Shown piece by piece: positions 9,201 through 63,152 of a DNA stretch of 64,000 nucleotides. Source of the DNA: a virus (lineage: Duplodnaviria; Caudoviricetes). The stretch lies in the IMG/VR virus record IMGVR_UViG_3300046648_000377, positions 330 through 64,329 of that record. The stretch is one strand, 5' to 3'. Position numbers and translations under genes: made by a program. The stretch's first letter is position 1, and each line of letters begins with the position of its first letter. The notes beneath the pieces were generated by a model that saw only the letters and a program-made list of their open reading frames with translations, made no database searches and had not been told where the DNA came from.

Positions 9201-12200
9201 GTAGGCGGCAAGGGCATCGCGCTTGCTGGCGAAGCCCATCATCGCCTTGTGTTCATCGAACTTCCCCGTGTCCTGGTGGATCTGGTCGACAACGAACACG
9301 CGACGCGCTTCAGGCTTCGGCCCAACGTACACGTCGACGTGATCACCATCTGCGCCAACGGTGCCGCGCACGTAGCCATAGTGGTCGCTCATTGCGTGGG
9401 ACCACGGCTTTCCGCCGGCGTCGACGCCGCTGCGAACGGATCCGCGCGGATTCTCGATGCTGACGTCCAGGCCGTGGATCTGCACGTGACCCATCTTGTA
9501 GTTGCCGGCTTCCTTCTGCGCCTGCGTCGGCTCGGGGCGGTCGTTATGCGGAGAGGTGGCCGCCTCGGCAGCGGCGACATCGACCGGGTGCGCCGGTGCC
9601 GCTTCGGCTTGCGCAGCGACTGCCTCGGCCGTCGGGGCCTTTGCGGGCTCCGGCGCCGTGGCGTTGCGCTCGTTGCGCGCCGTCGCATCCTTGGCTGCAA
9701 CACGGGCCGATGCGATCGCCTCCTGTGCGTAGGGGAGAATGCCCGCGGGCAGCGGAACCTTCTCGCCCTCTGCGTTGACCAGGCGATGCTGCAGCTTGTC
9801 GCCCATGCGTTGGCTTTCGACCTGGTCGAATCCGGCGGCCACACGGCCATCGACGAAGCGCTTCGCGTTCACCTCGCCGTCGGCGGTCTTCACGCGCAAG
9901 CTGTCGGCCCGCTTGGCCGCCGGCGTCGGTTCGGGCAAGACCGCACGCGTGCCCGCGGTGTCAGCCTGCTCGATAGGCGTAGCAGCTGCGCGCGACGATG
10001 TCTCTGGAACGCGATCAGGGCCTTTTGTTCCGCTTTCAACCGGTTTTGTTCCGCTTTGTGCCGGTTCTGTTCCAGTTTCTGGCGAATTTTCCCCATCGAC
10101 GCCGGCATTCGCTGCATCGATCGGTGAGCCACCATCCGGTGCCACCGGCTGCTCCGATCCACCCGCTTCAGCCGGGGGAGCGGCACCTGCGTCAACGGTA
10201 TCGGCCGTTCCGTCAACGGGTTTCGGGCTTTCGTCAACGCTATCGGCCGATTTGTCATCGCCGACGACCGGCGTCTCTTCTGCAGAAGCGGCGGCTGGTT
10301 CGCCGCCAAGCGCTGCGTTCAGACGATCGCGGGATGCGTCGAGGCCGGCATTCATGTTGCGCTCGACATCGTCGAACGTCCGAGCAGGCTCATCGCCGGC
10401 TTCCTGCGATGCACGCGCACGAGCGTCCATTTCCGCGTCGAGTGAAGCGTCAGCCGGCGCGGCTTGGTCACGACCGGCTCCGGCCGCGATGTCGTCTTGT
10501 ACCGGTGCTGCGTCAGCCTCTGGGGCCGGGGCCGGCGAACGCTCGCGCTTGGCAATCGCATCGAGTGCACTGAGTTCGGCGGGACGCCGCGCCCGCTTCA
10601 CGTCATTCGCCGATACGCCCCACGCATCCGCAAGAGCGCCAGAGTTAATGCGGAGAATGCCCGATGCGTCGTACTGGGCCTGCATTTGCTGAGCGATGGC
10701 GCCGACCAGGTCGTCCTTGGTGGGCACACCGACTTCGCCCGTATCCGGATTAACCCATGAGGGCGTAATTGGATCGACCGGGCGGCGATCGGCGGTACCG
10801 GCATCCGCGGCCTGCGCCTGCCGCCCCGCTTGCGCCGCAGGCGCCGGTGCGGCCGCCGGCGGCTGCGCGCTATTGGGGTCTGGGATCCCAGCTGCGGCGA
10901 CCGGTGGAGCTTCACCGTTTCTTGCGGCCTGCGCGCGCTGGATGTCGGGAGTGAGACCGTAGTCGGCGCGGGCCTGTGCCACCTGACGAGCTCGCTCCAT
11001 GTCCGCGGTGTTAGCGACGCGGCCGTCGCTGTCGACGGGGAATACTGGCGCAGGAAGAGCGAGGCGCACAGCGGGGTCGCGCACGAGCGTGGCCGCTTCG
11101 CTGAGACTTCCCGGCGCGGGTCGGTGGAGACCACCCAACCCGCCGAAGATAGCACCGGGCAGCGCGCCGGCGCCGAACGTAGCGAGTGAATCCTCCAACG
11201 GATCCCGGGTCTCACCGGTGGCGCTGTTGGCTGCTGCCGTCTGAGCTGCCGTCTGCCCAACTGCGATCGCACCCTGGACAGGCGCCTCGATCGCAGCGCC
11301 GGCACCAGCGCGGCGCAGCGCACTCTCGCCGACGACCTTCGCCAGCGTGCCCTGTGCTTCGTGGAGCAGCGGCGCCGTCGTGATGGCGCCGGCGGCAGTG
11401 GCCACCGGCAGCGTCGTCGCGAACACCCGGGCGCGCACCTGGTCAGCGAGTGCGGTACGCGCATCCTCGGGCTTCATGCCGCGCGCGATCATGGAACTGT
11501 ATGCGGGGAGCTTCTGCAGGTCAGCATCCGACATCTGCTGGACACGCTGTGACTCACCCTGGGCTGCGTCCTCGGCACCCTGGACGCCACCGGTGGCCGC
11601 GCCAGCTGCAACTGACGCGCGGCCGCTGCGAGTTAGAGCCGCCTGGGCGACTTGCTGTGCTTCCGGCGCCAGCTCGGCGATCTTCCCTGCCCGGACAGCG
11701 GCGAGAATCTCGGCGGTCATGCCCGGGGCGCGCGAGAGCGCCTTCGCGGCCGTTGCTTCGCTCCCGAGCACCATCGGAGCCAGGTTACCGACGAGATCCG
11801 CGCCCTTGAGCGTCCAGTTCATGGGCGACGATGCGCCCTCGCCCAGACTCCAGCTCTTCGGATCGAGCAGCTTGCCCTGGACCAGCGGCGCCTCCTGCAC
11901 GGCCTTGGCCTTATCGCTCTCGGTACCCTTGATCCAGTCGCCGACCTTCTCGATGGGCGAACCGATGAAGTCACCGATCATCGTGCCCGGGCGCTTAATC
12001 CATTGCGGCTCGTCATCGCTCATGACCTGCCGCGAAATGATCCCCGTTGGATTCAACGTGTCCGATGCTTCACCGAGGCCGCGCACCGTCGCCCCAATGC
12101 CGTGCACGACGCCACCGACGAGCGCCTTCGGGATATCTAGAAGGCCATAGCCGTCGTCCTTCGGCGCAGGCTTCGGAGCATCCGCCGCCGGCGCGTCGTA

Positions 12201-12425
12201 GGAGAAGCCGGCTGGCGCTGCCGGGCGCGTGAGTACGTTCCCGCCGGTCGGTACTGACGCAGCCATCGGCGCCTGCGTCGGCCGCGCCAATGTCGGCGCC
12301 AATGTCGGCGCCGGTGCCGGCACGGGATTGCTCGGCACAGCCGCGGCAGCTGGTGCCGGGTCGTCGTCATGCTGGTAGTCGAAGCCCGGCGGCGGCGCCG
12401 GGCGTGCAGCGTTCAGTCCATCCAT
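3228..12425 (-). CDS. large polyvalent PLxRFG-domain protein (InPase, LPD23/MPTase, second MPTase, PRTase, PLxRFG), likely virion-ejected
   Basis: GNYKMGH..IENPRGS..YGY..GADGDHVDV (InPase-like); TGWHRGADGKWRFEIDDS and LLHEIQHAVQ; LAHEAVGH; VLLDDTLTQGGT; YFPLARFGDY; TAATG coupling to upstream gene. Confidence 0.88.
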   Translation of the reverse strand: MDGLNAARPAPPPGFDYQHDDDPAPAAAAVPSNPVPAPAPTLAPTLARPTQAPMAASVPTGGNVLTRPAAPAGFSYDAPAADAPKPAPKDDGYGLLDIPKALVGGVVHGIGATVRGLGEASDTLNPTGIISRQVMSDDEPQWIKRPGTMIGDFIGSPIEKVGDWIKGTESDKAKAVQEAPLVQGKLLDPKSWSLGEGASSPMNWTLKGADLVGNLAPMVLGSEATAAKALSRAPGMTAEILAAVRAGKIAELAPEAQQVAQAALTRSGRASVAAGAATGGVQGAEDAAQGESQRVQQMSDADLQKLPAYSSMIARGMKPEDARTALADQVRARVFATTLPVATAAGAITTAPLLHEAQGTLAKVVGESALRRAGAGAAIEAPVQGAIAVGQTAAQTAAANSATGETRDPLEDSLATFGAGALPGAIFGGLGGLHRPAPGSLSEAATLVRDPAVRLALPAPVFPVDSDGRVANTADMERARQVAQARADYGLTPDIQRAQAARNGEAPPVAAAGIPDPNSAQPPAAAPAPAAQAGRQAQAADAGTADRRPVDPITPSWVNPDTGEVGVPTKDDLVGAIAQQMQAQYDASGILRINSGALADAWGVSANDVKRARRPAELSALDAIAKRERSPAPAPEADAAPVQDDIAAGAGRDQAAPADASLDAEMDARARASQEAGDEPARTFDDVERNMNAGLDASRDRLNAALGGEPAAASAEETPVVGDDKSADSVDESPKPVDGTADTVDAGAAPPAEAGGSEQPVAPDGGSPIDAANAGVDGENSPETGTEPAQSGTKPVESGTKGPDRVPETSSRAAATPIEQADTAGTRAVLPEPTPAAKRADSLRVKTADGEVNAKRFVDGRVAAGFDQVESQRMGDKLQHRLVNAEGEKVPLPAGILPYAQEAIASARVAAKDATARNERNATAPEPAKAPTAEAVAAQAEAAPAHPVDVAAAEAATSPHNDRPEPTQAQKEAGNYKMGHVQIHGLDVSIENPRGSVRSGVDAGGKPWSHAMSDHYGYVRGTVGADGDHVDVYVGPKPEARRVFVVDQIHQDTGKFDEHKAMMGFASKRDALAAYRSNFDKGWNVGPVRDFTMDQFKDWLKSGDTKSPAVDAPVTPATTVKPTAATAPAAATSPTPAARRGGIATNGARVRVAGGKLEYVPHARETLEAYFKPGEVRPGYAGKQKIDAFNWNDGRWNVTVHSVRDDGSDLPARQGEQRTHSTAPTSRDLRAVLGKPELPAKGAPAGRASANAPVHDFSFAGESARTADLEALDRARDREREGFGTDPDRFGHRVGSVEDTHTETGWHRGADGKWRFEIDDSKATVKPEAVDAATHFRSAIEHSDRALAARAAGDEEGNTAATEASRASSAAAAKATVATVGDVLDHPDLFKAYPELASVPLKINGEMGHWGSYDPNRNQVTMRPPADYPRTGNRSFKSVLLHEIQHAVQEKEGFARGGSSAEFAEPLQRQRKALLLRKQTIEQMQKNAREADDAARVRSLEVERQRVNDELSGSRLQSEESVRSVATEQYRRLAGEVEARDTQRRVDMTAEDRRSTPPTETQDVPRSEQIVRFRDGAGSRSEGDAATPTQNEHAERMTEVAREATKAWHGDDIPHVEVVATPEQLPYSAKVDPITGKPDPSYKWASGFHDGKTIWLVASAHRDDAAGHARLSRTLAHEAVGHFGVDRVVNRELGADAWKKIEASVLRLEKDGAGGKQMQGILGEVRRRYGDVDNTTFARETIAVMAERGVRNGLLDRAVSAVQAFLRRIMPNLKLLPAELRQLLVRSSEYLERGESYEERVERQSTMSFSRDGWPEGFPDVVLGHKLGTVREHPDYAAAKAGDDAAALRLARDTVTKDFADRVKAAIPEGSEPTIVPVVAREATGNNRIPVMAAEVLAKRLGLEVDHGMIQAEKVGRGAGDAMHRLANQPTFEGKVTAGKDYVLLDDTLTQGGTLAQLKTHIEREGGHVVLATSLTGKDYSRKLALDPTTLGNVRDRFGRIEGWWRRQFGHGFDGLTESEARTILTYDRGRLSPDALRDRVIAHRIPGLGEVGEGAAGDRSGAQAPGTGGRDEAGPVKEAPPKPRSDFSLDDRGEREEPGTTRKPFSKASESIESMNEVMPKLDDGAFQRAKEWAKGKLLDAEPHLLGALQLRHVLELASDTKVLKRHADFYADTFQRMDADRNTMTMEGSAKADRLNKWSFEHGPAGWAGKLTEEAKGLFKFMHEVTQVTVDPTSDYERLLMRDDRGEQTPWTEDLRKQRIKTLQEQMRGRAGDDKTALLDQIKDLRKLPAREKARELKYPEQVAKWNALSPQAKEMFTMMRDHYRETSERLEEATLARIQALDIPEQNKRAAAEMVRTNFADNKVGGVYFPLARFGDYWIASRLPGEDGEGGEYHFTKYEDAYAAQRAEKQLQAAGHTIEATGRQNKDYETQKPVTGTFMGQLTGMLRQGGAPDKVLDDIHQMFLRTLPELSLRKSGIHRSNVAGYTDNVPRIFASNVLHGAHQIARARYGYQLEDSMEHMRATVEGNRPLMGVGQAAHADALVGELAKRHQWIMNPTNSKLATMINSVGFTYYLSASPASALVNLSQGAMVTLPVLGARHGWPAAMREMGSATRDAMRTFGNIRQVLATDDERRAFDTLEANGTFARTATHSLGGIAEGDALKMNPAYAKVMTAMGYMFQKAEVINRESAGIAAFRLATKDGKSFNEAIKYADEIVNGTHFDYSNANRARFMQGNAQKVLFQFKNYALGMSWVLYRNLEQSLRGETPEVRRVARRTLTGVLGMTTLFAGIMGTPINNLLSAGANAYHAATGDDDTPWDFNTEFRAWLSDHLGARAASVIADGVVDQLGANISGRVGTSDLWFREPDKQLVGGPAYDQFLESMAGPIGGLTKNLFVGSNMVSQGHTERGVETMMPTFIKNAMKSVRFAKEGVNNLRGDPIVSDVSGPEKLIQAIGFQPTKIAEQQRVNSAMMNYQQGVQDRRQSLMNAFAMATNSGDSGSRSEALAKIRTFNKKYPEISIGMGNLQASLRRRAHQSAQAENGIQLNRKLAPRIRAEVGGFAAN

Positions 12426-14044
12426 TACAGCGCCCTCCACGATCCATTGAGAAAGACCATCTGCTCGCCAGACTTCTGGTTGGTTACGAGCGGCAGGCCG
12501 ATCGCGCGTGCCTGCTGGCCACGCCAGTCAGCGATCTGTTTCGGCGAGACCTGGGTGCGGTCGGCTTCCGGCAGCAACGCCTGCGCCTTCGTGTGCTCTT
12601 CCATCTGCGTCTGGACGCCCTTGGTGAGCTGGTCGAGCACATCGTTCTCGCGACGCGTGCCCGAGTCGTCCTTGGTGACGGCCGCACGTGCCACGGATCC
12701 GTCGGGGAGCCGCGTGGGCGTGGCCACGCCGTTCGGCCCGATCTGTGCGATCGTGCCGTCGGACAAAGTGGTTTGCGGCAGCTGTCGGGTAAGCAGCGAT
12801 CGCGCGGCCTCGAGCGCACTCTGCTGCAGGCCATACTGCCCGCGTAAATTTTCGACAGCGAGCGCGCTGCCGCGCTGGGCCGCACCATTGGCCGCCTCAT
12901 TGTCGCCAGCCACGGCCTGTTCGCCGGCGCGGAGACTCCCAGCCAGCTGCGCACCGAGAGCACCAGCTGCTGCACGGCGGAGGCGCGGCGTGCCGGCGTA
13001 CTGGGCATCCATCCCCAGGTTGTTGGCGACGGTTCCGGCCGCACTCCGCCAGTCACCGCTGGCGATCGCATCGCGGTCAGACGCGGCGAACTGTGCGGCG
13101 GAGGGTCGGCTCCCCGTGATCGGGACGGCCGTAGGCTGGCGCAACGCGGCGGCCTGTTCCGACGAGGGCGTGTAGCCGAGCACATCGCTGGCGAGTGGAG
13201 CCTTGGGTGCGGGAGCCGTCTGCAGGCGCGCGCCGAGATTCTTGATGGTCTCGTCTGTCATCGTCCGCGGAATGCTTCCAGCAACGCCAGGAATGCCGCT
13301 GCTGCCGTCGCTGAAGGTCGGGACACCGTTGACCATGGCGCCGTACGGCAAATGACGGCCGTCGGCGGTCGTCACACCACCGTACACATCACTCGGGAGA
13401 TCACCCTTCGATGTTCCGAGGCCCGAGCTCTGCACGCCGGCGAGCGATGGCCGCTGCAGTGCCGCGCTCGGCGAGCTCGCAGCGCTCGGATCAAGCGGGC
13501 TGGTCGCTGGCGCAGTCGTGTCGACGCCGCCCGTCACTCCGGCAAACGACGCGCCAGCGCTGGGATTCCCGCCAGGCGCAGAGCCAGCTCCAGGAAATGG
13601 CCTGGACAACGGTGCCGCGGTTACACCCGGTAGCGGGTTGCCTGCGTTCGGCGATTCGGGATTGCCGGCGATACCGTTGTAGACATCGCGGGCGATCGGT
13701 GCCGCGTACCGCACAGGCGCAGTGAGCGTATTAACGACGCCGGTACCGACGTCGCGCCCCGCGTTGACCAGGTCGACGCCGCCATTGATTACGCTGCGGC
13801 CTTCGCCACCGATCGCACGGCCGACGCGCGTACCGATCGCGGCGTCGGGCGGAAGCGTGGGGTCGGGCTTGCTGGCAAGCGCGGCAATGGAGCGCGCATC
13901 AGATGCCTGCGCTCCGCCGAACACCAAGGGCGTTCGCGTGAGGGCGGGTGCCGAAGGAGCTGCCGGAGTAGGCACGCTGGAGCCAGCGGTGACGTCGTCG
14001 TCGGTAATCGGGCTGGGACGGCGGAGAAGCGAGGTCGTGGCCAT
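12425..14044 (-). CDS. putative internal virion/ejection protein
   Basis: 539-aa Ala/Gly/Pro-rich ORF directly upstream of the giant protein. Confidence 0.6.
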   Translation of the reverse strand: MATTSLLRRPSPITDDDVTAGSSVPTPAAPSAPALTRTPLVFGGAQASDARSIAALASKPDPTLPPDAAIGTRVGRAIGGEGRSVINGGVDLVNAGRDVGTGVVNTLTAPVRYAAPIARDVYNGIAGNPESPNAGNPLPGVTAAPLSRPFPGAGSAPGGNPSAGASFAGVTGGVDTTAPATSPLDPSAASSPSAALQRPSLAGVQSSGLGTSKGDLPSDVYGGVTTADGRHLPYGAMVNGVPTFSDGSSGIPGVAGSIPRTMTDETIKNLGARLQTAPAPKAPLASDVLGYTPSSEQAAALRQPTAVPITGSRPSAAQFAASDRDAIASGDWRSAAGTVANNLGMDAQYAGTPRLRRAAAGALGAQLAGSLRAGEQAVAGDNEAANGAAQRGSALAVENLRGQYGLQQSALEAARSLLTRQLPQTTLSDGTIAQIGPNGVATPTRLPDGSVARAAVTKDDSGTRRENDVLDQLTKGVQTQMEEHTKAQALLPEADRTQVSPKQIADWRGQQARAIGLPLVTNQKSGEQMVFLNGSWRAL

Positions 14045-44190: not shown

Positions 44191-44676
44191 TCAGAAGCCT
44201 CCTGTCGCCGGCTCGTCGCGCTCTACGAGCGAGAACCGCGGCGGCTGTCCCGGCAAGCCATGCGGCTCCGGCAGCTCTGTGCCCAGTCGGGCGAGTTCAG
44301 CGGTTGCAGCTGCGAGGAGACTGTTGTGCTGCTCGGTAGCAGTGGCGATGCGATCGAGTAGCGATTGCCTGCGCTCTTCGGTCGGGATACGACGGAGTTC
44401 GAAGCCGAGATCCCGGGCCATGGCGAAGAAGAGTTCGTGGCGCTCAAAGCGCAGCATCAGCGCCCACACTTCGCCGATCTTGAAGTACGCCGGCTTGCCC
44501 GGGTTAAGGCAGTCGTTGAAACGGCTGATCGCCGCGTCCCACGTTAGGCGGCTCCGATCCCAGAACCCTTCTTCGAAGAGGAACTCGATCATCTGGCGTT
44601 TGGTAGCGCCGTCGACGTCGAGTGTTGAGCGGAGGGCATCTGTCCCTCGCTGCAGCCACTGTGCGTCAATTCGCAT
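44191..44676 (-). CDS. CII-like transcriptional regulator
   Basis: RFNDCLNPGKPAYFKIGEV..; located between cro and the initiator. Confidence 0.6.
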   Translation of the reverse strand: MRIDAQWLQRGTDALRSTLDVDGATKRQMIEFLFEEGFWDRSRLTWDAAISRFNDCLNPGKPAYFKIGEVWALMLRFERHELFFAMARDLGFELRRIPTEERRQSLLDRIATATEQHNSLLAAATAELARLGTELPEPHGLPGQPPRFSLVERDEPATGGF

Positions 44677-45049
44677 GTTGTAACCCCGCGATGGCGTGAT
44701 CAGTCGTGCCGCACGTCTGGCTTGTGCCCGCACGCACGGCGTAAGTGGTGATGAGCGCCAGCAGGGCGCCGGCGATGAAACAGAAGACGATTGAGAGAGG
44801 CTGCTGGTGCATGGCCTCCCCAGGCGCGGAACCCTCGGCGCCAGCCATCTGCTCAACGAAGTGGTACTCGCTGATCAGCGGCGTATCGCAGCCTTCGCCC
44901 TGGGCTCGTAGCGCGACGAGGTAAGCGTCCATCCAAGCGCGTCGTCGAGGACGCGAGCGCGCCTTGCGCAGACGAAACGCAATGGCCGTGTACCTCAACG
45001 GCCTGGGCCCTCGTCGAACCTGAGCATTGCTGAGCGACGCGTCGCGCAT
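44666..45049 (-). CDS. hypothetical membrane protein
   Basis: ORF with C-terminal TM; start uncertain. Confidence 0.45.
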   Translation of the reverse strand: MRDASLSNAQVRRGPRPLRYTAIAFRLRKARSRPRRRAWMDAYLVALRAQGEGCDTPLISEYHFVEQMAGAEGSAPGEAMHQQPLSIVFCFIAGALLALITTYAVRAGTSQTCGTTDHAIAGLQHAN

Positions 45050-45531: not shown

Positions 45532-45873
45532 CTACTGCGCCTCCGAGGGCTTGATTCCGTGCGGCAGGTAGCCGTCAGTGATCAGCTGCGCAGTTTCAGG
45601 GGCGACGCCAAAGGTCTTGGGGCGCAACCGATACCGAGTCACAAACCCTTCGACAGCCTCCTCCATGGGGATCACCTGGTCGGCCGGAACGCTCTTCCGC
45701 TTCCGCCACATGCTCACCTGGTGAGGCGGCACCCCGAGAGCCAGAGCCATCTTCGAGACGCCACCGATATGTTGAATCGCCAGATCAAGAGCTTGAAGGA
45801 CCAAGTCGGCAGCAGCGGCGTCAGCATCGGCGTCGGTGGGGCGAGGAGCCAGGTCAAGAGCAGTGAGGGTCAT
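45532..45873 (-). CDS. cro: Cro/YdaS-like HTH regulator
   Basis: GGVSKMALALGVPPHQVSMW..VPA..VTRYRLRP..FG; divergent from cI. Confidence 0.85.
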   Translation of the reverse strand: MTLTALDLAPRPTDADADAAAADLVLQALDLAIQHIGGVSKMALALGVPPHQVSMWRKRKSVPADQVIPMEEAVEGFVTRYRLRPKTFGVAPETAQLITDGYLPHGIKPSEAQ

Positions 45874-45879
45874 GCGCGC

Positions 45880-45908
45880 ATTGTCACGCAACGTGACATT
45901 CTAAGCAA
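45880..45908 (-). promoter_or_regulatory. PR promoter with operator TGTCACG-N3-CGTGACA
   Basis: TTGCTT-17-GACAAT; palindrome at 45882-45898; cro ATG lies 6 nt after the -10 box. Confidence 0.75.
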
Positions 45909-45966
45909 CACACTGGGAAACATGGGTGATGGCGGCTTCACCGCAAAGCGCGAACCATCCCGCCCC

Positions 45967-46617
45967 ATGGATCCTCATCTGCTCGGCGCACGAATCGCCA
46001 ACGCCCGAAAGAGCCTCAACCTGACTCAGGAGAGGCTCGCGGCCCACCTCGGCTACTCGTCGACCAGTCGCCTGGGCAACTACGAAAGCGGGAACCGCAT
46101 CCCTTCGCTTGCGGATCTCACCGAAATCGCCAAGGCACTTGGGTACACGCTCGACGTGCTTGTCGAAGGCGACGAGATCCTGGGCGAAGAGCGCGCACCG
46201 ACCATTCGCGGCGACATCCCTGGCCACGTGCAGATCGACCGATTGGCCGGGTTCGACAAGCACACTGGGCCAAACGAGCTCTACCTACCTGAATTCCTCG
46301 TTCGCCAGCGTGTGCCTCATGCGAACCTGAAGAACGTCCGCTGGATCCGAAATCCGACCACCGTGATGCGACCACGTATCCAACCGGGCGCCTTGGTGCT
46401 CGTAGACGTGAGTCACAGCGACCTGGACCAGGTCATGGATGGCGAGACATACGCTGTGCGCCTGTACGGTCGTCCCGACATCCGGCGGATCCAGCTCATG
46501 CCGGGCGATGAGTCCATCCGCCTGGTGGGCGATCGCGAAACAGACAACCGTTTCGAGCTGGCGCGCGCTGACTACTCGAAGCTCGAGATCGGCGGCCTAG
46601 TCATAGACTGCCTGTAA
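45967..46617 (+). CDS. cI: CI-like repressor (XRE HTH + catalytically degenerate S24 domain)
   Basis: LTQERLAAHLG..LGNYESGNRIPS; C-domain NPTTVMRPRIQPGALVLVD..DIRRIQ; alternative start 45922. Confidence 0.85.
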   Translation: MDPHLLGARIANARKSLNLTQERLAAHLGYSSTSRLGNYESGNRIPSLADLTEIAKALGYTLDVLVEGDEILGEERAPTIRGDIPGHVQIDRLAGFDKHTGPNELYLPEFLVRQRVPHANLKNVRWIRNPTTVMRPRIQPGALVLVDVSHSDLDQVMDGETYAVRLYGRPDIRRIQLMPGDESIRLVGDRETDNRFELARADYSKLEIGGLVIDCL

Positions 46618-46683: not shown

Positions 46684-48327
46684 ATGATTGACCGTGCAGT
46701 GGATGCTTGGGGCGCGCGCAGCGCATTGGCAAGGAAGGCCGCACGGGCTTTGAGTCACGTTGCCATTGCGGCGACCTATGCGCTTGCTTATCTGGCGCTT
46801 CGCGAGACGTCAAACGACCAGTGGTATCTGCCGGCTGGCCTTCGCTTCGTCATGTTACTCATCACCCCGACGCGATACTGGCCCGCGTTGTACGCCGGCG
46901 ACATCGTTGCGCTGGGCCTATTCCGCATTCCCATGATTCCGCGCGACGGTATCGCTTGGGTGACGGCCTCGGTCTTCCCGGTGTGGCCCGCCGTAGCCGC
47001 GGTCGTGTACCAGCTTCGGAAGAAGTCGGCGCTCCCGCACATTCGCACGGCCATGGACGCCGGCTGGTTCGTCATCGCCGCACTGATTGCTGCAGAGCTG
47101 CCAAGCTTTCTCAACAAGGCATGCTCTGCCCTTCTGAGGCACAGCGCCGGCGCGATGAAGTTCTCGGACCTCTTCGTCTACACGATGGGCCACCTGCAGG
47201 GGATCCTGCTCTTCTCGTTCGTCGCTATCTGCATTTTCGGCAAATGCGTGGATCCACGGCGCGAGCGCATGCTCCGGATCGATGCCGGGGTCACTATCGT
47301 GCTTTCGCTCATCCTCGCTGCAGCCATCTCCGCCGCCACCGCCACTAGCGCCGATACGAACCTCATCCAGGGCATGCGCATGCTGTTGCTGGTTCCGGCC
47401 GTCGCGATGTCGGTCCGCTTTGGCTACCGGGGCGCGTGTGTCGGTGCTGTGGCATCCAACGTGGCGCTCTTCTTGACCATCCCTCACCAAGACGCCGGTC
47501 TCAGCGACCCGGGCGCGCTGGTGATGCAAGAGGCCTTCGCCCTGATCGCCTGCTCCATGTTCGTGCTCGGCGCCCGGATCTACGAGCGAATGCATGAGGC
47601 AACAGGGGCGAGCAACGCCGAGCGCGCGGCACGCCACCTGGCCAAGGCCAGCTTCGACTCGAGCGAATCGCTCATGCGCGAACGCGCCATTCGGGCCGAG
47701 GAGCTCCAGACGAGCAGCCGCACGGCCATGCAGTCGACGATTAAGTGGCTCAGGGCACAGGGCCATTCCGAGGTCGCCATGGGCTTGGTGGGTATCGCCC
47801 ACAGCCAAGCCGCGGCCTTTCAACAGATCATCGTCGACGCCCTTTACCCACTCACGCTCGAGCGCGACGGCCTTTACGCGGCGCTGAACTCGGAGGCGTT
47901 TCACCTACAGTTCGACATGGCATCCGTGGAGTGCAATCTCGACCTCCTGGGCTCGGCCCAGGATCTCCCGATCGCGACCCAGCGCGCTGTATACCGCGTG
48001 ATCGGCGAGTCGGTGGACTATCTGCTCGCCTCGATTCCCACAAGCATGCAGATCCGCGTACGCTGCACGACCCGCAATGGGCGTGGCCACGTAAGCATCG
48101 CTCTCTACGCTCGCGATCCAGCAGTGACCACGAGGTCGTCGGTAGACACTGCTCGCCTGGCCGGCCTTCGCACGCGCGCCATGGCCTACGAGGGATCGTT
48201 TCACAATAAGCCGCACCGTATCCGGGTCATCCTCCTGGACGAGGCGATGGAACGGCACGGGATACCAACGCTGCGAGGGCACGTCACCCGAAGAGCTCAA
48301 CGCGCTCAAAAAGAAAAGGCCCCGTGA
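46684..48327 (+). CDS. MASE1-domain membrane sensor with degenerate UhpB-like HisKA_3/HATPase
   Basis: QWYLPAGLRF..P.RYWP and multiple TMs; LYPLTLERDGL, VYRVIGESV, LAGLRTRA. Confidence 0.85.
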   Translation: MIDRAVDAWGARSALARKAARALSHVAIAATYALAYLALRETSNDQWYLPAGLRFVMLLITPTRYWPALYAGDIVALGLFRIPMIPRDGIAWVTASVFPVWPAVAAVVYQLRKKSALPHIRTAMDAGWFVIAALIAAELPSFLNKACSALLRHSAGAMKFSDLFVYTMGHLQGILLFSFVAICIFGKCVDPRRERMLRIDAGVTIVLSLILAAAISAATATSADTNLIQGMRMLLLVPAVAMSVRFGYRGACVGAVASNVALFLTIPHQDAGLSDPGALVMQEAFALIACSMFVLGARIYERMHEATGASNAERAARHLAKASFDSSESLMRERAIRAEELQTSSRTAMQSTIKWLRAQGHSEVAMGLVGIAHSQAAAFQQIIVDALYPLTLERDGLYAALNSEAFHLQFDMASVECNLDLLGSAQDLPIATQRAVYRVIGESVDYLLASIPTSMQIRVRCTTRNGRGHVSIALYARDPAVTTRSSVDTARLAGLRTRAMAYEGSFHNKPHRIRVILLDEAMERHGIPTLRGHVTRRAQRAQKEKAP

Positions 48328-48342
48328 GGGGCCTTTTCGTTT
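48313..48342. terminator. bidirectional intrinsic terminator
   Basis: GAAAAGGCCCC-GTGA-GGGGCCTTTTC between convergent genes. Confidence 0.85.
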
Positions 48343-48357
48343 CTAGAGCTCGAAGCC

Positions 48358-48801
48358 TTACTTGACGAAGACCTGCCAAGTGACAGTGCCGTCGGCATTG
48401 GTGACAACACCCACCACCGAGTAGTCGTCCTGATACACCACCACCGCAACTGGCGGCGCAACGGCCACTTGCTGCACCAGATCGCTGCCGATCGGCAGCG
48501 CCAGCACTCGGTCGCCCACAACGGTGTACGCAGCGCGCGGAACGCCGGTGGCGTCGGTCAGCTCGACATAGCGCACCGTATCCCGGGTGAAGACGTACAC
48601 GCGCCAGTCCGGCGCCGCCGAAAGGTTCTGTGCTTCCGGGGCTGCCTTGCCCAGGTCCGTTTGCGTCGGCACCGCCATCGCATGCGGCTTGCCGTTGTCC
48701 CCCGAGGCGCAGCACGGCAATTCCGCGTGGGCACTCAATGACACACCTAAACCGGTAAGTAACAGCGCAAATCCGATCCGTGAGAGCTGGGCGCGTCGCA
48801 T
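48358..48801 (-). CDS. secreted protein (Sec signal peptide)
   Basis: MRRAQ..LLLTGLGVSLSAHA cleavage site; DLG.AAP.AQNLSAAPDWRVYVF..VRYV..D; GGAGG RBS. Confidence 0.85.
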   Translation of the reverse strand: MRRAQLSRIGFALLLTGLGVSLSAHAELPCCASGDNGKPHAMAVPTQTDLGKAAPEAQNLSAAPDWRVYVFTRDTVRYVELTDATGVPRAAYTVVGDRVLALPIGSDLVQQVAVAPPVAVVVYQDDYSVVGVVTNADGTVTWQVFVK

Positions 48802-48850
48802 CTTGGAGAGCCTCCGATGGGTGAAGTTTCATGAATGCTTGATAAACGAT

Positions 48851-48925
48851 AGTCACGCAGCGTGACTGGCTGACTTGCCCTAAATGTCACGTTCCGTGAC
48901 TATGTCGGTGTCACGGGATGAAACA
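48851..48925 (+). promoter_or_regulatory. PL promoter with three operators
   Basis: AGTCACG-N3-CGTGACT at 48851-48867, TGTCACG-N3-CGTGACT at 48885-48901, degenerate copy at 48909-48925; TTGCCC-17-GACTAT. Confidence 0.75.
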
Positions 48926-48981
48926 AGCGTGTGGTTATACCACCGCCGTCCCAGTCTGCCACGCTCATTGGGGGTTCGCTC

Positions 48982-49254
48982 ATGCACGCTCAGCCCACGC
49001 GGTTCCCGCGGCCGGTCGACCGGTACCGCGACGTCCAGTCCGGGAATGCCCTGGTCACTCTGGACTCCGAAAGCAACGTCGTTCGGCTCCGCTTCCCCGT
49101 TTCCGACGTCGGTCCGCCCGACGACCCAGCCGCCCCGGGCGCGGACGGCACACCTCAATCCATCAGCGCCACCCAGTTCGGCGTCTTGATGGCACTCCTC
49201 ATCGTCGCGACCGCCTTCGTGTGGATCGGCCTGCTCCTGGACGGTCCACGGTGA
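48982..49254 (+). CDS. hypothetical membrane protein, first PL gene
   Basis: C-terminal TM segment. Confidence 0.55.
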   Translation: MHAQPTRFPRPVDRYRDVQSGNALVTLDSESNVVRLRFPVSDVGPPDDPAAPGADGTPQSISATQFGVLMALLIVATAFVWIGLLLDGPR

Positions 49255-61397: not shown

Positions 61398-61613
61398 GTG
61401 ATAAATGGCTGCCTCACAACCGAAGAACTGCAGTCTTGGAGCGGCTACGACCGCCCAGCGGACCTGCGCCACTGGCTTGATCAGCAGGGCATTCGGTACT
61501 TCCGTGGGAAAGGAGGCAAGCCGTGCACGACGATGGCGCTGGTAAACGCGGCCGCAGGCCTGGCACTGACCGTGGGCGAGCAGCCGACGATGCTCGGCGC
61601 GGACGACCTCTAG
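61398..61613 (+). CDS. DUF4224 excisionase-like protein
   Basis: LTTEELQSWSGY..WL.QQGIRYF.G..GKP.TT directly before the integrase; start uncertain. Confidence 0.75.
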   Translation: MINGCLTTEELQSWSGYDRPADLRHWLDQQGIRYFRGKGGKPCTTMALVNAAAGLALTVGEQPTMLGADDL

Positions 61614-62725
61614 TGGGTCGGGGACGGCCGCGCCAGCGGGACCTGACGATCCCTGCCCACATCGACCAGCTCAGCATCCCCCGCGGGGTGTACTGGAAGG
61701 CGAAGGATCGTGTCTGGTACACGCTGGTGAGCCAGGGCGAGGGCAAGCAGTCCTGGAAGCGGCTCGGTGGTCCGGAGGCGACCCTCGCGGATCTACAGGC
61801 GAGCCTCGAGGCTACGCGTGGCGTCGATCGCGCGAGCCTCGGCTGGTTGTGCGACGAGTTCCACGGCAGCGACCAATTCAAGCGTCTGGCCGAGAAGACC
61901 CGCGAGGACTATGACGCCCAGCGGAAGATCATCGCTACGTACCAGACGAAGCGGGGCATGCTGCAGGACCTCCCTTATGCCTCGCTCACGCCTGTCTTCG
62001 TTCAGAAGCTGATCGACACCATCGGCTCGGAATACCCTTCGAAAGCGAACCATGTCCTGCGCTACGTGCGTCGGGTCTACTCCTGGGGTCGGACGCGACG
62101 GGGATGCAAAACGAACCCGGCCAAGGGCGTCGAGCAGGCAGTCGAGCGTAAGCAACAGCGGCTACCGAAGGAGCACGCCTACATGGCGTTGCTCAACCAT
62201 GCGAAGGCGAATTACCCGGCGTACCTGTGGATCGCGACGGAACTCGCCTTCCTAATGCGACTGCGTGGTATCGAGACGGTCACGCTCGACGACACGTACG
62301 TCCTCGAGGAGGGCATGCTCACCAACCGCAGGAAGGGATCGGCAGACAGCGTGATCGAGTGGTCGCCCCGGCTTCGCGAGGCGGTGCGTGCCGCCGGTGC
62401 CGAGCGCTCGCGGATCTGGTCGAAGAAGAAGATGCCGACGCCGCTGGACCCGCGCCAGCGTCCGATCCTCGTCAACATCCATGGGAAACCGGTGAGCCGG
62501 CACACGCTCAGCACCCTGTGGCAGACGTGCATCAAGGACGCGATCCAGAAGGGGCTTATCTCCCCGGACGACCGTTTCGCGATCCACGACGCGAAGCGCA
62601 AGGGCGTGACGGAAACCGTCGGCGACAAAGCGGCCAAGAAGGCAGGCAGCGGCCACAAGTCCGATTCGATGCTGGGCGTCTACGACAAGAGCATTCCCCG
62701 CGTCAGTACCCCAGGGAGCGTCTGA
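61613..62725 (+). CDS. int: tyrosine integrase
   Basis: LMRLRGIE (R), RRKGS (K), HDAKRK, GHKS..VY; adjacent to att. Confidence 0.92.
   Translation: MGRGRPRQRDLTIPAHIDQLSIPRGVYWKAKDRVWYTLVSQGEGKQSWKRLGGPEATLADLQASLEATRGVDRASLGWLCDEFHGSDQFKRLAEKTREDYDAQRKIIATYQTKRGMLQDLPYASLTPVFVQKLIDTIGSEYPSKANHVLRYVRRVYSWGRTRRGCKTNPAKGVEQAVERKQQRLPKEHAYMALLNHAKANYPAYLWIATELAFLMRLRGIETVTLDDTYVLEEGMLTNRRKGSADSVIEWSPRLREAVRAAGAERSRIWSKKKMPTPLDPRQRPILVNIHGKPVSRHTLSTLWQTCIKDAIQKGLISPDDRFAIHDAKRKGVTETVGDKAAKKAGSGHKSDSMLGVYDKSIPRVSTPGSV

Positions 62726-63010: not shown

Positions 63011-63152
<142 letters not shown>

Follow-up and report, generated by a model that had tools for sequence, protein, structure and literature searches.

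An undescribed cassette of a CI-type repressor, a MASE1 pseudokinase and an exported protein in phages and mobile elements of Xanthomonas-like bacteria

Results and Discussion

Here we describe a cassette shared by many phages and mobile elements from Xanthomonas-like bacteria, in which a MASE1 membrane protein with the features of a histidine pseudokinase and a small exported protein form a genuine conserved pair. In the window, by which we mean the whole 64,000-nucleotide stretch of DNA analysed, a CI-type repressor joins the pair, and the resulting three-gene cassette, whose anatomy is close to certain, is housed in the immunity region of a ~62-kb lambdoid prophage with a tRNA-Ser gene as integration site. 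Neither the 3.5-kb region nor the MASE1 protein had a match in 50,697 deposited phage genomes (blastn, tblastn), and a literature search for the cassette gave no match either. An earlier reading of the same DNA (the original prediction) had proposed a sensing or communication module at this place; what it had observed is confirmed and what it had concluded is partly supported. The region contains the following features:

45532..45891, minus strand: Cro-like regulator, likely ATG at 45873 (Pfam YdaS_toxin 2e-14, P22_Cro 1.5e-6; PHROG transcription regulators)
45883..45897: operator palindrome GTCACGCAACGTGAC between cro and cI (perfect palindrome match)
45922..46617, plus strand: CI-type repressor, start at 45922 or 45967 (HTH_3 N-terminal and S24-like C-terminal domain)
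46684-48327, plus strand: putative MASE1 pseudokinase, ORF of 547 aa (ORF list)
46684..47568, plus strand: MASE1 membrane domain, residues 1-295 (Pfam MASE1, AF2 helices, hydropathy, positive-inside count, conservation)
47569..48327, plus strand: cytoplasmic DHp-like helical hairpin and CA-like alpha/beta domain, residues 296-547 (Foldseek, alignments)
48313..48338, both strands: bidirectional intrinsic terminator, MASE1 stop codon within the stem (folding, shuffles)
48358-48801, minus strand: predicted exported protein, ORF of 147 aa, convergent to the MASE1 gene
48358..48723, minus strand: mature periplasmic protein, as predicted (AF2 pLDDT, Foldseek, library searches)
48724..48801, minus strand: signal peptide, residues 1-26, predicted cut after AHA (sequence, hydropathy, homologues)
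48852..48866: operator palindrome, 51-65 nt upstream of the ATG of the exported gene (perfect palindrome match)
48886..48900: second operator palindrome, 31-45 nt upstream of the early ORF 48931-49254 (perfect palindrome match)
48931-49254, rightward: first rightward early ORF

The cro gene is the first of the leftward early operon, with a cII-like gene at 44191-44856 and the replication genes further left. As originally predicted, a polytopic MASE1 protein is encoded behind cI and co-oriented with it, and the claim that no response regulator is nearby was borne out by the absence of any receiver domain match (PF00072) across the whole 64-kb provirus record.

Conservation of the pair

A neighbourhood survey had been proposed earlier as a check on co-occurrence; using an HMM of the exported protein, a convergent and adjacent homologue was found in 85 of 99 related loci. 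Four of the 14 misses have at most 150 nt of downstream DNA and three have only partial MASE1 matches; full-length pseudokinase loci without a detectable exported gene number seven. The 3' ends of the two genes overlap by 4-58 nt in about 50 loci. Altogether 78 distinct pairs have open full-length frames at 25-50% identity among members, with up to five divergent copies per genome. A few copies are broken: L062 and L068 are cut short, and stop codons interrupt some of the matches. The cassette is widespread: out of 301 genomes sampled from the order, 55 have a MASE1-family match, a figure that includes genuine host kinases, and the module is present in 20 viral contigs. Locus contexts were derived by clustering all ORFs and a Pfam scan of 140 cluster representatives, followed by protein-level checks. 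They show the cassette in lambdoid (window) as well as in P2-like (gpU/gpD) prophages. In a well-supported nested clade from Xanthomonas, which makes up 24 of the 78 rows, the pair persists but this CI is absent, in settings as different as an ICE with TrbL/VirB6, an integrase island, a place beside a holin and one beside a chromosomal sugar transporter.

The MASE1 protein as a histidine pseudokinase

The N-terminal half matches Pfam MASE1 (PF05231) at residues 26-302 of the 547-aa protein (E 3.8e-18, 66.1 bits vs a cut-off of 29.8). AF2 helices, hydropathy and the positive-inside count give about ten TM helices with the N-terminus inside. The periplasmic loops of this domain are all short (residues 40-48, 86-89, 148-170, 220-225 and 269-276), and that MASE1 exposes so little counts against signalling by contact as considered below. 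The first of these loops, 40-48, reads S-x-DQWYLP and is nearly invariant, with D45-Q46-W47-Y48 being family-specific.

NCBIfam UhpB covers residues 30-507 end to end, but its score is just 51 bits where the cut-off is 408. Ten members were scanned in their C-terminal halves with Pfam HisKA_3 and HATPase_c, and none of the ten gave a hit even at E<=10; a PDB sequence search with a profile of 78 pseudokinase sequences gave no true match but only designed helical repeats (E 0.29-0.99). With the AlphaFold2 model (pLDDT 90.9), Foldseek returned DesKC, which we take to be a HisKA_3-class core, as the top match (E 2.3e-5, prob 1.00), 33 histidine-kinase cores at E<=1e-3, and RetS and RetS-GacS structures among the fold matches. 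The cytoplasmic half is therefore predicted to keep the DHp and CA fold of a DesK/UhpB-type kinase core.

The catalytic residues are gone throughout the family. The H of 'ELHDELGQ' in six genuine paralogues aligns to E339 or a gap of the window protein. Among the 78 aligned members His occurs once at column 339 and three times at column 342, no column of DHp helix 1 has His in more than 17 of 78, and the N-box column holds Asn in three. In the window protein the G1 box DxGxG is replaced by RDPAVTT and the G2 box (GxGL) is absent, and the ATP lid is 7-14 residues shorter than in the genuine paralogues. The earlier reading of a dead UhpB-like kinase thus stands as to the missing phospho-His, N-box Asn and G1/G2 boxes, but it had placed the lost His at Q342, three residues off the register found here. 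Judged from these alignments the 547-aa protein is a histidine pseudokinase that lacks the residues needed for ATP binding or phosphate acceptance. Framework residues are conserved. The retention of the fold together with the family-wide loss of catalysis implies selection on a non-enzymatic role.

The related chromosomal proteins L100-L105 carry MASE1, HisKA_3 and HATPase_c in six of six cases. A divergent REC+GerE regulator stands beside both genuine paralogues examined in this respect, and the exported gene was found near none of the genuine paralogues. Pseudokinase and genuine host kinases align end to end with ~195-213 bits at 21-25% identity, a kinship that identifies the pseudokinase as a paralogue (descendant or sister) of the chromosomal MASE1-HisKA_3-HATPase kinases of the same bacterial order.

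The exported protein

The 147-aa protein begins with MRRAQLSR followed by a hydrophobic core and AHA|E, which was read as a signal peptide by eye and hydropathy only, and an N-terminal hydrophobic segment followed by an AxA-like site was seen in the 78 aligned homologues. This predicts Sec-type export, as had been claimed, with the periplasm of the diderm host as destination, and the earlier term 'secreted' has to be read in this sense. A lipoprotein was considered as well and rejected: in many members K, R, H, W and P are found ahead of the first Cys, and cleavage by type I signal peptidase is the better fit.

The mature protein starts out disordered, in a part that bears the motifs C(G)CPxDGHG and GLG, and continues into a beta-domain of eight predicted strands (residues ~60-147, AF2 pLDDT >90 for those residues). 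It had no match at E<=1e-3 with Foldseek against the PDB and none in Pfam, NCBIfam, PHROGs or PADLOC; its ESM Atlas matches were unnamed clusters and PepSY-like models at TM 0.36-0.38, below any fold claim. With 310 representatives the exported protein constitutes an undescribed family without known relative. When the full-length pseudokinase and the mature exported protein were modelled as a complex (alignments of 77 rows each), the score was 0.02, which is counted neither way.

The CI repressor and its linkage to the pair

The window CI matches Pfam HTH_3 (6.3e-13) as well as phrog_4 (repressor, 7.4e-20) and phrog_6201 (CI-like, 4.5e-9) of PHROGs, and Peptidase_S24 only with E 0.035 (14.2 bits vs a cut-off of 23.3). 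Its N-terminal domain is a helix-turn-helix, and three perfect palindromes at the two divergent promoter regions are the matching operators. At the S24 motif positions, which we take to be G-D-S-M and K-R, the window CI has T-T-V-M and R-R, that is Val at the catalytic Ser position (TTVMRP) and Arg at the Lys position (DIRRI). The other 44 CI rows mostly show A-M or A-L at the first motif position and all R-R at the second; Ser and Lys are absent from 45 of 45 aligned rows, the motif positions being assumed rather than computed. A distant relative with a significant S24 match has D-M and K-R. In agreement with the original prediction the repressor apparently cannot cleave itself.

An HMM of the CI C-terminal domain (CTD) matches the upstream co-oriented ORF in 47 of the 99 loci, and tblastn gives 49. 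In a FastTree phylogeny of 78 rows rooted on a long branch, 43 carry the CI label, including deep branches, and only 4 changes are needed to explain its distribution compared with a shuffle mean of 28.1. The HTH varies (HTH_3 in the window, YdaS-like in L050) while the CTD stays. Searching in the reverse direction, both CTD matches from the 301 genomes sampled in the order are followed closely by a MASE1 match, and viral contigs scanned with a DNA pattern gave five CTD-bearing matches, each with MASE1 downstream; this is a small test of seven cases, and the DNA pattern was built from module-linked CIs. The CI-CTD family was found only beside the module (7/7 independently found genes), and the tree shows CI family and module to be linked across deep divergence. 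The linkage could also merely reflect the need for a lysogenic promoter and co-transfer via CTD homology.

Terminator, operators and expression

The two convergent genes share a strong bidirectional terminator, as had been noted before: the hairpin at 48313-48338 has U-tracts on both sides, its folding energies are -28.9 kcal/mol (z -5.4) on one strand and -30.9 kcal/mol (z -6.2) on the other, and 0 of 200 shuffles were equally stable. The gap between cI and the MASE1 gene is 66 nt long and holds no terminator-like site, so expression of the MASE1 gene in the lysogen, which the original prediction had assumed, is plausible, and the gene is probably co-transcribed with cI.

Within the 64 kb there are exactly three copies of the palindrome core GTCACG-N3-CGTGAC (0.36 expected; one of 100 shuffles reaches three). 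The perfect palindrome reported earlier upstream of the exported gene is indeed there, as one of two, and both together (48852-48866 and 48886-48900) presumably form the OL region. That the window operators flank the region upstream of the exported gene counts in favour of signalling by contact as considered below. The proposal that the repressor controls the exported gene fared less well: what speaks for it is the position of the operators, palindrome operators common to the cI side and the exported-gene side occur in only three of 42 CI-bearing loci (0/42 in controls), and it is weakened by the layout of the P2-like relatives, in which the gene lies after the tail genes gpU and gpD. Exact words of at least 12 nt shared between the cI-upstream and exported-gene-upstream regions (3/42 loci; 2/42 and 0/42 in controls) were uninformative, as was a search for a LexA box with a Xylella/Xanthomonas motif (0 matches vs 0.65 expected).

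Both genes of the pair are transcribed together in one locus of the CI-less Xanthomonas clade, as seen in a raw-read run; the RNA-library contigs X2, X3 and X13 cover the homologous locus but cannot show transcription. As this clade keeps the pair and one of its loci transcribes it, CI cannot be the sole partner, and the earlier idea of a pair tied to the CI circuit has to be widened to a pair that also works without CI.

Proposed mechanism and alternatives

Our preferred reading, which we put forward tentatively, is that of a kinase-dead envelope sensor with a periplasmic co-factor, acting by contact on a non-cleavable CI; all binding steps, the signal and the direction of control are inferred, as is the co-transcription with cI. 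In favour of this reading we count the conservation of the pair, the fold retained without catalysis, the genuine paralogues with their regulators, the linkage to CI in both search directions and on the tree, the varying HTH on a constant CTD, the presence in two prophage types, the lost S24 Ser and Lys, the family-specific D45-Q46-W47-Y48 of the first periplasmic loop and the absence of a receiver domain; against it we count the CI-less clade, the seven loci lacking the exported gene, the smallness of the reverse test and the rarity of shared operators. The periplasmic protein would be an accessory partner of the MASE1 membrane domain, after the manner of CpxP, ExoR and YfiR, and would bind or release the sensor on a periplasmic or envelope cue. 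The pseudokinase, unable to phosphorylate, would relay a conformational change by binding a cytoplasmic partner, in prophages most likely the non-cleavable C-terminal domain of the co-inherited CI, and the cassette would thereby give the phage a control of repression independent of RecA-stimulated repressor self-cleavage. In the CI-less Xanthomonas clade the two-protein device would act on another partner, e.g. the NarL-type regulator of a related host system. In the layouts looked at, lambdoid as well as P2-like, the exported gene is on the strand of the lytic direction, next to OL/PL in the window and behind late tail genes in the P2-like relatives; its dose would hence rise when repression fails, giving feedback. 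A complete SOS-independent lysis-lysogeny input of Gram-negative temperate phages, in which the periplasmic protein reports the state of envelope or periplasm to the MASE1 sensor, the sensor holds or releases the dead CI C-terminal domain at the membrane, repression is set by this sequestration in place of RecA-stimulated cleavage and the lytic-strand exported gene provides feed-forward commitment, is unlikely to hold in its entirety.

Superinfection exclusion and lysogenic conversion are close rivals of contact with CI. Exclusion or defence, which we consider possible but doubtful, would mean that inner-membrane and periplasmic proteins expressed in the lysogen block phage DNA entry or envelope penetration independently of CI, or conjugative elements in the case of ICE copies, with the pseudokinase domain as scaffold or gate. 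The module sits in the slot behind cI, as rexAB does in lambda, its location in membrane and periplasm suits an envelope block, its carriers are prophages of two architectures and an ICE, and up to five divergent copies per genome, only 25-50% identity among members and the persistence of the pair without CI are in line with it. However, neither protein matches any family of PADLOC (E<=1) or PHROGs, proteins of this kind normally do not keep a complete, well-folded kinase core under selection, and the stable chromosomal copies by the sugar transporter in several Xanthomonas species resemble host genes more than defence cargo. Exclusion also leaves unexplained why the CI-CTD family was never found without the module (7/7).

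Lysogenic conversion, which appears rather improbable, would have the pseudokinase mimic a host MASE1-HisKA_3 kinase, via dead heterodimers or titration of a NarL-type regulator, similar to RetS on GacS, so that envelope traits (EPS, LPS, motility, biofilm) are altered and the periplasmic protein tunes the effect. The end-to-end alignment with host kinases of the same order, which have NarL-type partners, is in line with this, as are the RetS and RetS-GacS structures among the fold matches and the expression of chromosomal copies. A pleiotropic Tn5 mutant of XAC1778, a MASE1 'sensor kinase' of X. citri, is reported to be affected in biofilm, EPS, LPS and motility (PMC3130047); XAC1778 is only a putative member of the pseudokinase family and the phenotype therefore serves as a lead only. 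On the other hand identity to the host kinases is only 21-25%, framework residues are all that is shared with them, no host partner was identified and the linkage to a CI with a dead S24 domain is left unexplained.

Communication similar to arbitrium, in which the exported protein would pass out of the cell and reach the MASE1 sensor of other lysogens nearby, is very improbable, even if the lysis-lysogeny region does combine a membrane sensor with a neighbouring gene for an exported product, and in the window an operator precedes that gene. In a diderm, Sec export leads no further than the periplasm and such a circuit would need passage of the outer membrane; neither a secretion system nor a processing protease is linked to the product. 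Arbitrium uses a pro-peptide cut to a short signal and an intracellular receptor; here the product is modelled as a folded beta-domain of ~120 aa (~90 residues of it confident) rather than a processed peptide, the candidate receptor is a membrane protein, and the pair is also present in chromosomal, non-phage settings. That the module is what is left of a host two-component sensor, once captured and now decaying without present function, is disfavoured and hardly credible, because the loss of all catalytic motifs and the few broken copies stand against full-length open frames in 78 distinct pairs at 25-50% identity, a confident predicted fold (pLDDT 90.9), conserved framework residues, a conserved partner gene and transcription in one relative.

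Coming back to the preferred contact with CI, an SOS-independent exit from lysogeny in Gram-negative temperate phages is known for very few systems, the inputs of which are cytoplasmic transcription factors, and the cassette unites a repressor apparently without self-cleavage, a sensor without phosphorylation and a periplasmic protein of unknown fold. Whether it serves as a switch input, for exclusion or to rewire host signalling, it would be a clear example from nature of mobile elements taking up a two-component kinase and converting it into a protein that signals by contact alone. Culturable Lysobacter and Luteibacter lysogens allow direct tests of the cassette. Furthermore, the cassette brings to light two protein families without a name in current libraries; one of them may include the Xanthomonas gene tied to biofilm, EPS and LPS phenotypes in the report mentioned above.

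Comparison with known systems

The closest known proteins are the UhpB/MASE1-HisKA_3-HATPase_c kinases, which are like the window protein in length and in the order of MASE1, long linker helix, DHp hairpin and CA domain; the genuine paralogues have the framework residues E328, R332, P389, G396, G423, Y437-R438, R498 and G504 in common with it. In contrast to them, it lacks the phospho-His, the N-box Asn and the G1/G2 boxes, its ATP lid is shortened, and it has its own periplasmic partner gene instead of an adjacent response regulator and is carried by prophages and ICEs. RetS is likewise a kinase-fold protein; it acts on GacS by contact rather than by phosphotransfer to a cognate regulator, and action through protein contacts is what is proposed for the pseudokinase. 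Unlike the latter, RetS is a hybrid sensor encoded in the chromosome and has receiver domains as well as a periplasmic domain.

Sensors with periplasmic accessory proteins are found in CpxP-CpxA, ExoR-ExoS and YfiR-YfiN, where a small Sec-exported protein is likewise encoded beside a membrane sensor and conserved together with it. Here the sensor is without enzymatic output and has almost no periplasmic domain, and the accessory protein, whose partner role is putative, has an unrelated, undescribed fold.

In lambda, rexAB occupies the slot behind cI and is co-transcribed with cI in the lysogen. The original prediction had assigned the pair to this slot, which holds for the position directly downstream of cI, the orientation and one product being a polytopic membrane protein; it is a positional analogy only, as PADLOC and PHROGs revealed no sequence relation and the second gene of the window is convergent and encodes a predicted exported protein. 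The linkage of module and CI presumably spans a far deeper divergence than that of rexAB and cI in lambda.

Repressors without self-cleavage are known from phage 186 and the Gifsy phages, where they are controlled by antirepressors. SOS-independent induction inputs are reported for VqmAPhage-Qtip of VP882 and for transcription factor/small-protein modules of Vibrio linear plasmid-like phages (PMC10432266; bioRxiv 10.1101/2019.12.16.877910). These likewise concern temperate phages with an accessory sensory module by the switch, for which repressor cleavage after DNA damage is not needed; their inputs are cytoplasmic transcription factors and small antirepressors, whereas in the cassette described here the candidate input is a membrane pseudokinase together with a periplasmic protein.

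Results and Discussion

The window is a provirus record, and a 112-bp perfect direct repeat overlapping the 3' end of a tRNA-Ser gene most likely represents attL and attR, which bound a prophage of ~62 kb. Between the repeats lie an integrase gene as well as genes for a ParB-like protein, terminase, portal, major head and a 3070-aa virion protein. The latter, by its appearance an ejected virion protein of giant size, is encoded by a single ORF (3228–12440, minus strand). Against PHROGs it resembles DarB-like antirestriction proteins (1.6e-186), has an endolysin/lysozyme-like segment at residues about 930–1115 and is weakly similar to virion RNA polymerase in its N-terminal part.

Features of the prophage ends and the immunity region
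959–1070 and 63011–63122, 112-bp perfect direct repeat
Near 45873/45891, minus strand, end of the cro-like gene
45883–45897, perfect palindrome GTCACGCAACGTGAC between the cro-like gene and cI
45922 or 45967 to 46617, plus strand, cI
66-nt gap between cI and the MASE1 gene, without a terminator-like site
46684–48327, plus strand, MASE1 gene
48313–48338, hairpin between the MASE1 gene and the 147-aa gene
48358–48801, minus strand, gene of the 147-aa exported protein
48852–48866 and 48886–48900, two further perfect copies of the palindrome core
From about 48931, rightward early ORFs
61523–62725, integrase
63063–63152, minus strand, tRNA-Ser, 3' end overlapped by the 112-bp repeat

The anatomy that the original prediction had described for the MASE1/exported-protein region was confirmed in the window and can be extended to the related loci. 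Three perfect palindromes were found in the window against 0.36 expected, a number reached in one of 100 shuffles. As the matches obtained with three mismatches allowed do not exceed expectation (53 versus 59), only the perfect copies are meaningful. Folding of the hairpin is strong on either strand (−28.9 and −30.9 kcal/mol, z −5.4 and −6.2), with flanking U-tracts on both sides. The likely ATG of cro (45873) and the first possible ATG of cI (45922) are ~48 nt apart with one operator in between and no evident Shine-Dalgarno sequences, and the two divergent transcripts may be leaderless.

The 547-aa MASE1 protein is a predicted histidine pseudokinase. Pfam detects MASE1 (E 3.8e-18) and nothing kinase-like in the window protein, and the NCBIfam UhpB model spans its whole length but scores 51 bits against a cut-off of 408. 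In the C-terminal halves of ten family members HisKA_3 and HATPase_c gave no Pfam match in any case, even at E ≤ 10, and no solved kinase was found by sequence with a profile of 78 pseudokinases. The AlphaFold2 model (pLDDT 90.9) shows the last TM segment continuing into a long helix, a helical hairpin and an alpha/beta domain, and Foldseek matched it to histidine-kinase cores with DesKC on top (E 2.3e-5), followed by RetS, AdeS, CusS, HK853 and others (33 matches at E ≤ 1e-3). Taken together, hydropathy, the positive-inside rule and the model place the N-terminus inside and give ~10 TM helices with short periplasmic loops, the first of which (residues 40–48) carries a family-specific, nearly invariant S-x-D-Q-W-Y-L-P motif.

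Searching 301 genomes of the order Xanthomonadales with the MASE1 family yielded, next to the strong matches, a weaker end-to-end class of about 190–215 bits. All six fetched members of this class are genuine MASE1+HisKA_3+HATPase_c kinases. The neighbouring genes of two were examined, and both adjoin a divergent REC+GerE regulator within the core chromosome, near recN and bamE in the first case and near prfB, which encodes a release factor, in the second. No exported gene was found near any of the six. These chromosomal loci (L100–L105) represent a conserved host two-component system in six genomes, for which we know of no characterisation, and among genuine kinases its kinase is the one most closely related to the phage pseudokinase.

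Catalytic motifs in the genuine paralogs and in the pseudokinases (window protein and family)
H-box His: AAELHDELGQ in the paralogs, E339 or a one-residue gap in the pseudokinases
N-box: ATN in the paralogs, VD- in the pseudokinases
G1 box: RDNGTGL in the paralogs, RDPAVTT in the pseudokinases
G2 box: GRGLQGM in the paralogs, TARLAGL in the pseudokinases
ATP lid: full length in the paralogs, 7–14 residues shorter in the pseudokinases

Among the 78 family members a histidine occurs once at column 339 and three times at column 342, the register of the original prediction, no column of DHp helix 1 has it in more than 17 members, and three members have Asn at the N-box column. Residues kept in the family and common to real kinases are E328, R332, L356, P389, G396, G423, Y437, R438, R498 and G504, which are framework residues. 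The claim of a kinase part without catalytic residues therefore holds, since the motifs are lost and only framework residues are kept; the one correction concerns the histidine register given with it, which was shifted by three residues.

Pattern and tblastn searches based on the family alignment identified 99 loci, 79 of them in species-representative genomes and 20 in viral contigs. An HMM of the exported protein found a homologue in 85 of these loci, in every case convergent and directly downstream of the MASE1 gene, and the two genes thus make up a conserved module. From the 14 loci without a partner match, four have ≤150 nt of downstream DNA and three are partial MASE1 matches only, and the remaining seven encode full-length His-less pseudokinases with no partner detectable by the HMM. 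In about 50 loci the 3' ends of the two reading frames overlap by 4–58 nt. Two pseudokinase genes in tandem with one partner were found in L106 (3045–7109) and L107 (2952–7203), the partner gene is repeated two or three times in a row in L042, L049 and L126, and a genome can harbour up to five copies of the module. The genomes include Luteibacter, Lysobacter, Luteimonas, Xanthomonas, Dyella and Rhodanobacter; outside these genera there are two Paracidovorax loci and one record labelled Pseudomonas. The copies in the betaproteobacterial, plant-associated Paracidovorax cattleyae (L051, L052) nest within a Xanthomonas clade and that of the Pseudomonas sp. record (L037) is near-identical to the Xanthomonas ICE type, which points to recent horizontal transfer or mislabelling.

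All 78 aligned homologues of the exported protein share an N-terminus with a basic stretch, a hydrophobic core and an AxA-type site. A lipobox is disfavoured, with K, R, H, W or P often preceding the first Cys. The mature protein starts at or next to C-C-P or C-G-C-P, followed by x-D-G-H-G and a G-L-G motif; this region is predicted to be disordered and precedes a beta-domain of eight predicted strands (residues about 60–147, pLDDT above 90). The C-C-P (or C-G-C-P)-x-D-G-H-G motif just past the predicted signal-peptide cut (about 48690–48723, minus strand) recurs in homologues, is missing in those of Dyella and Rhodanobacter, and could be a metal- or redox-sensitive site. Pfam, NCBIfam, PHROG and PADLOC contain no match to the protein, and no PDB structure matches its fold at E ≤ 1e-3. 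In public databases its family comprises 127 clusters, all unnamed or 'hypothetical', and a set of 1.84 billion proteins contains 310 representatives at E ≤ 1e-3. Its predicted Sec export in a diderm host would place it in the periplasm, and nothing suggests that it leaves the cell.

In 47 of the 99 loci by HMM, and in 49 by tblastn, the co-oriented gene upstream of the module is a member of one CI family. The CI C-terminal domain (CTD) is conserved (31–49% identity) and the HTH varies, being HTH_3 in the window and YdaS-like in the related locus L050. At the presumed S24 Ser and Lys positions the window repressor has V and R, and Ser and Lys are absent from all 45 aligned CI rows; L095, a distant relative with a significant S24 score, has D and K. 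In the reverse direction, a CTD-only profile matched twice in the 301 genomes, each time with a MASE1 match directly downstream, and 26 viral stretches matched a degenerate GRPDIRR DNA pattern, of which five encode the CTD, all five with MASE1 downstream; these cases are few, and the pattern itself came from CI genes linked to the module. In a FastTree phylogeny of 78 pseudokinases, with the six genuine kinases as the root, 43 rows and the deep branches have the CI-adjacent state, which requires four changes (shuffle mean 28.1). The CI-linked cassette is found in lambdoid prophages (window, L081, L082) and also in P2-like prophages, where the exported gene shares the strand of gpU and gpD and lies behind them after a gap of about 70–100 nt (Pfam-confirmed for L099); the gpD cluster was found in ten loci. 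The pseudokinase and its periplasmic partner are the invariable core of the cassette; its third member, a CI whose S24 domain is dead, is frequent and old.

The 24 CI-less rows from Xanthomonas and Paracidovorax form one nested clade of this tree with 100% local support. Here the module adjoins TrbL/VirB6 and other conjugation genes (five rows, near-identical across several Xanthomonas species), an integrase and a LysR gene, or a holin, or lies downstream of a chromosomal MFS sugar transporter (five rows, four Xanthomonas species). In a second non-CI clade some loci have a different HTH_3 gene upstream. For L055, a locus of the sugar-transporter type, 915 reads were placed from about 2% of a stranded raw-read RNA run (X21). 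Depth is 30–102 on one strand signal and 8–25 on the other for the MASE1 homologue, and 52–74 versus 0.6–9 with opposite bias for the partner gene, the pattern that sense transcription of the two genes from opposite strands would produce. A low antisense signal (about 10–25) continues past the partner gene and enters the 3' part of the pseudokinase gene (L055:3209–3439), as expected for convergent overlapping genes without an intervening terminator. L055 is a 25–27% identical relative and not the phage of the window, and its transcription says nothing on CI control.

As for function, we tentatively rank first that the pseudokinase would be an envelope sensor working by contact alone with a periplasmic co-factor, whose target in prophages would be the co-inherited non-cleavable CI. 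This is favoured because the CI linkage is deep and exclusive, the fold is retained and no other induction route is evident, and it is weakened by the existence of a CI-less clade. Among the layouts examined, lambdoid and P2-like, the exported gene occupies the strand of the lytic direction and converges on the cI-MASE1 transcript, and therefore dose feedback or transcriptional interference is possible, the latter of which the strong terminator of the window would limit. Exclusion or defence at the envelope, a somewhat doubtful second, fits the slot behind cI and the mobility of the module; however, the defence catalogues contain no match and the preserved kinase core would be left unexplained. 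Lysogenic conversion by interference with the related host MASE1/NarL system ranks third and is rather unlikely; it fits the ancestry of the pseudokinase. A candidate lead that also fits is XAC1778 of X. citri, a putative family member, which is annotated as MASE1 'sensor kinase, similar to sugar transporter component' and whose Tn5 mutant forms less biofilm and EPS, is less motile and has an altered LPS (PMC3130047). Extracellular communication, raised by the original prediction, is very improbable as the fourth reading, and a functionless remnant comes fifth as the least probable of all.

Conclusion

Full-text searches of the literature turned up no account of the MASE1/exported-protein pair or of any prophage-borne MASE1 pseudokinase, PHROG and PADLOC contain no family for either protein, and the MASE1 protein was found in no deposited phage genome. 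The parts of the cassette belong to known kinds, namely MASE1, pseudo-histidine-kinases, sensor accessory proteins and genes behind cI, and what is new are their combination and the linkage to a CI with a dead S24 domain.
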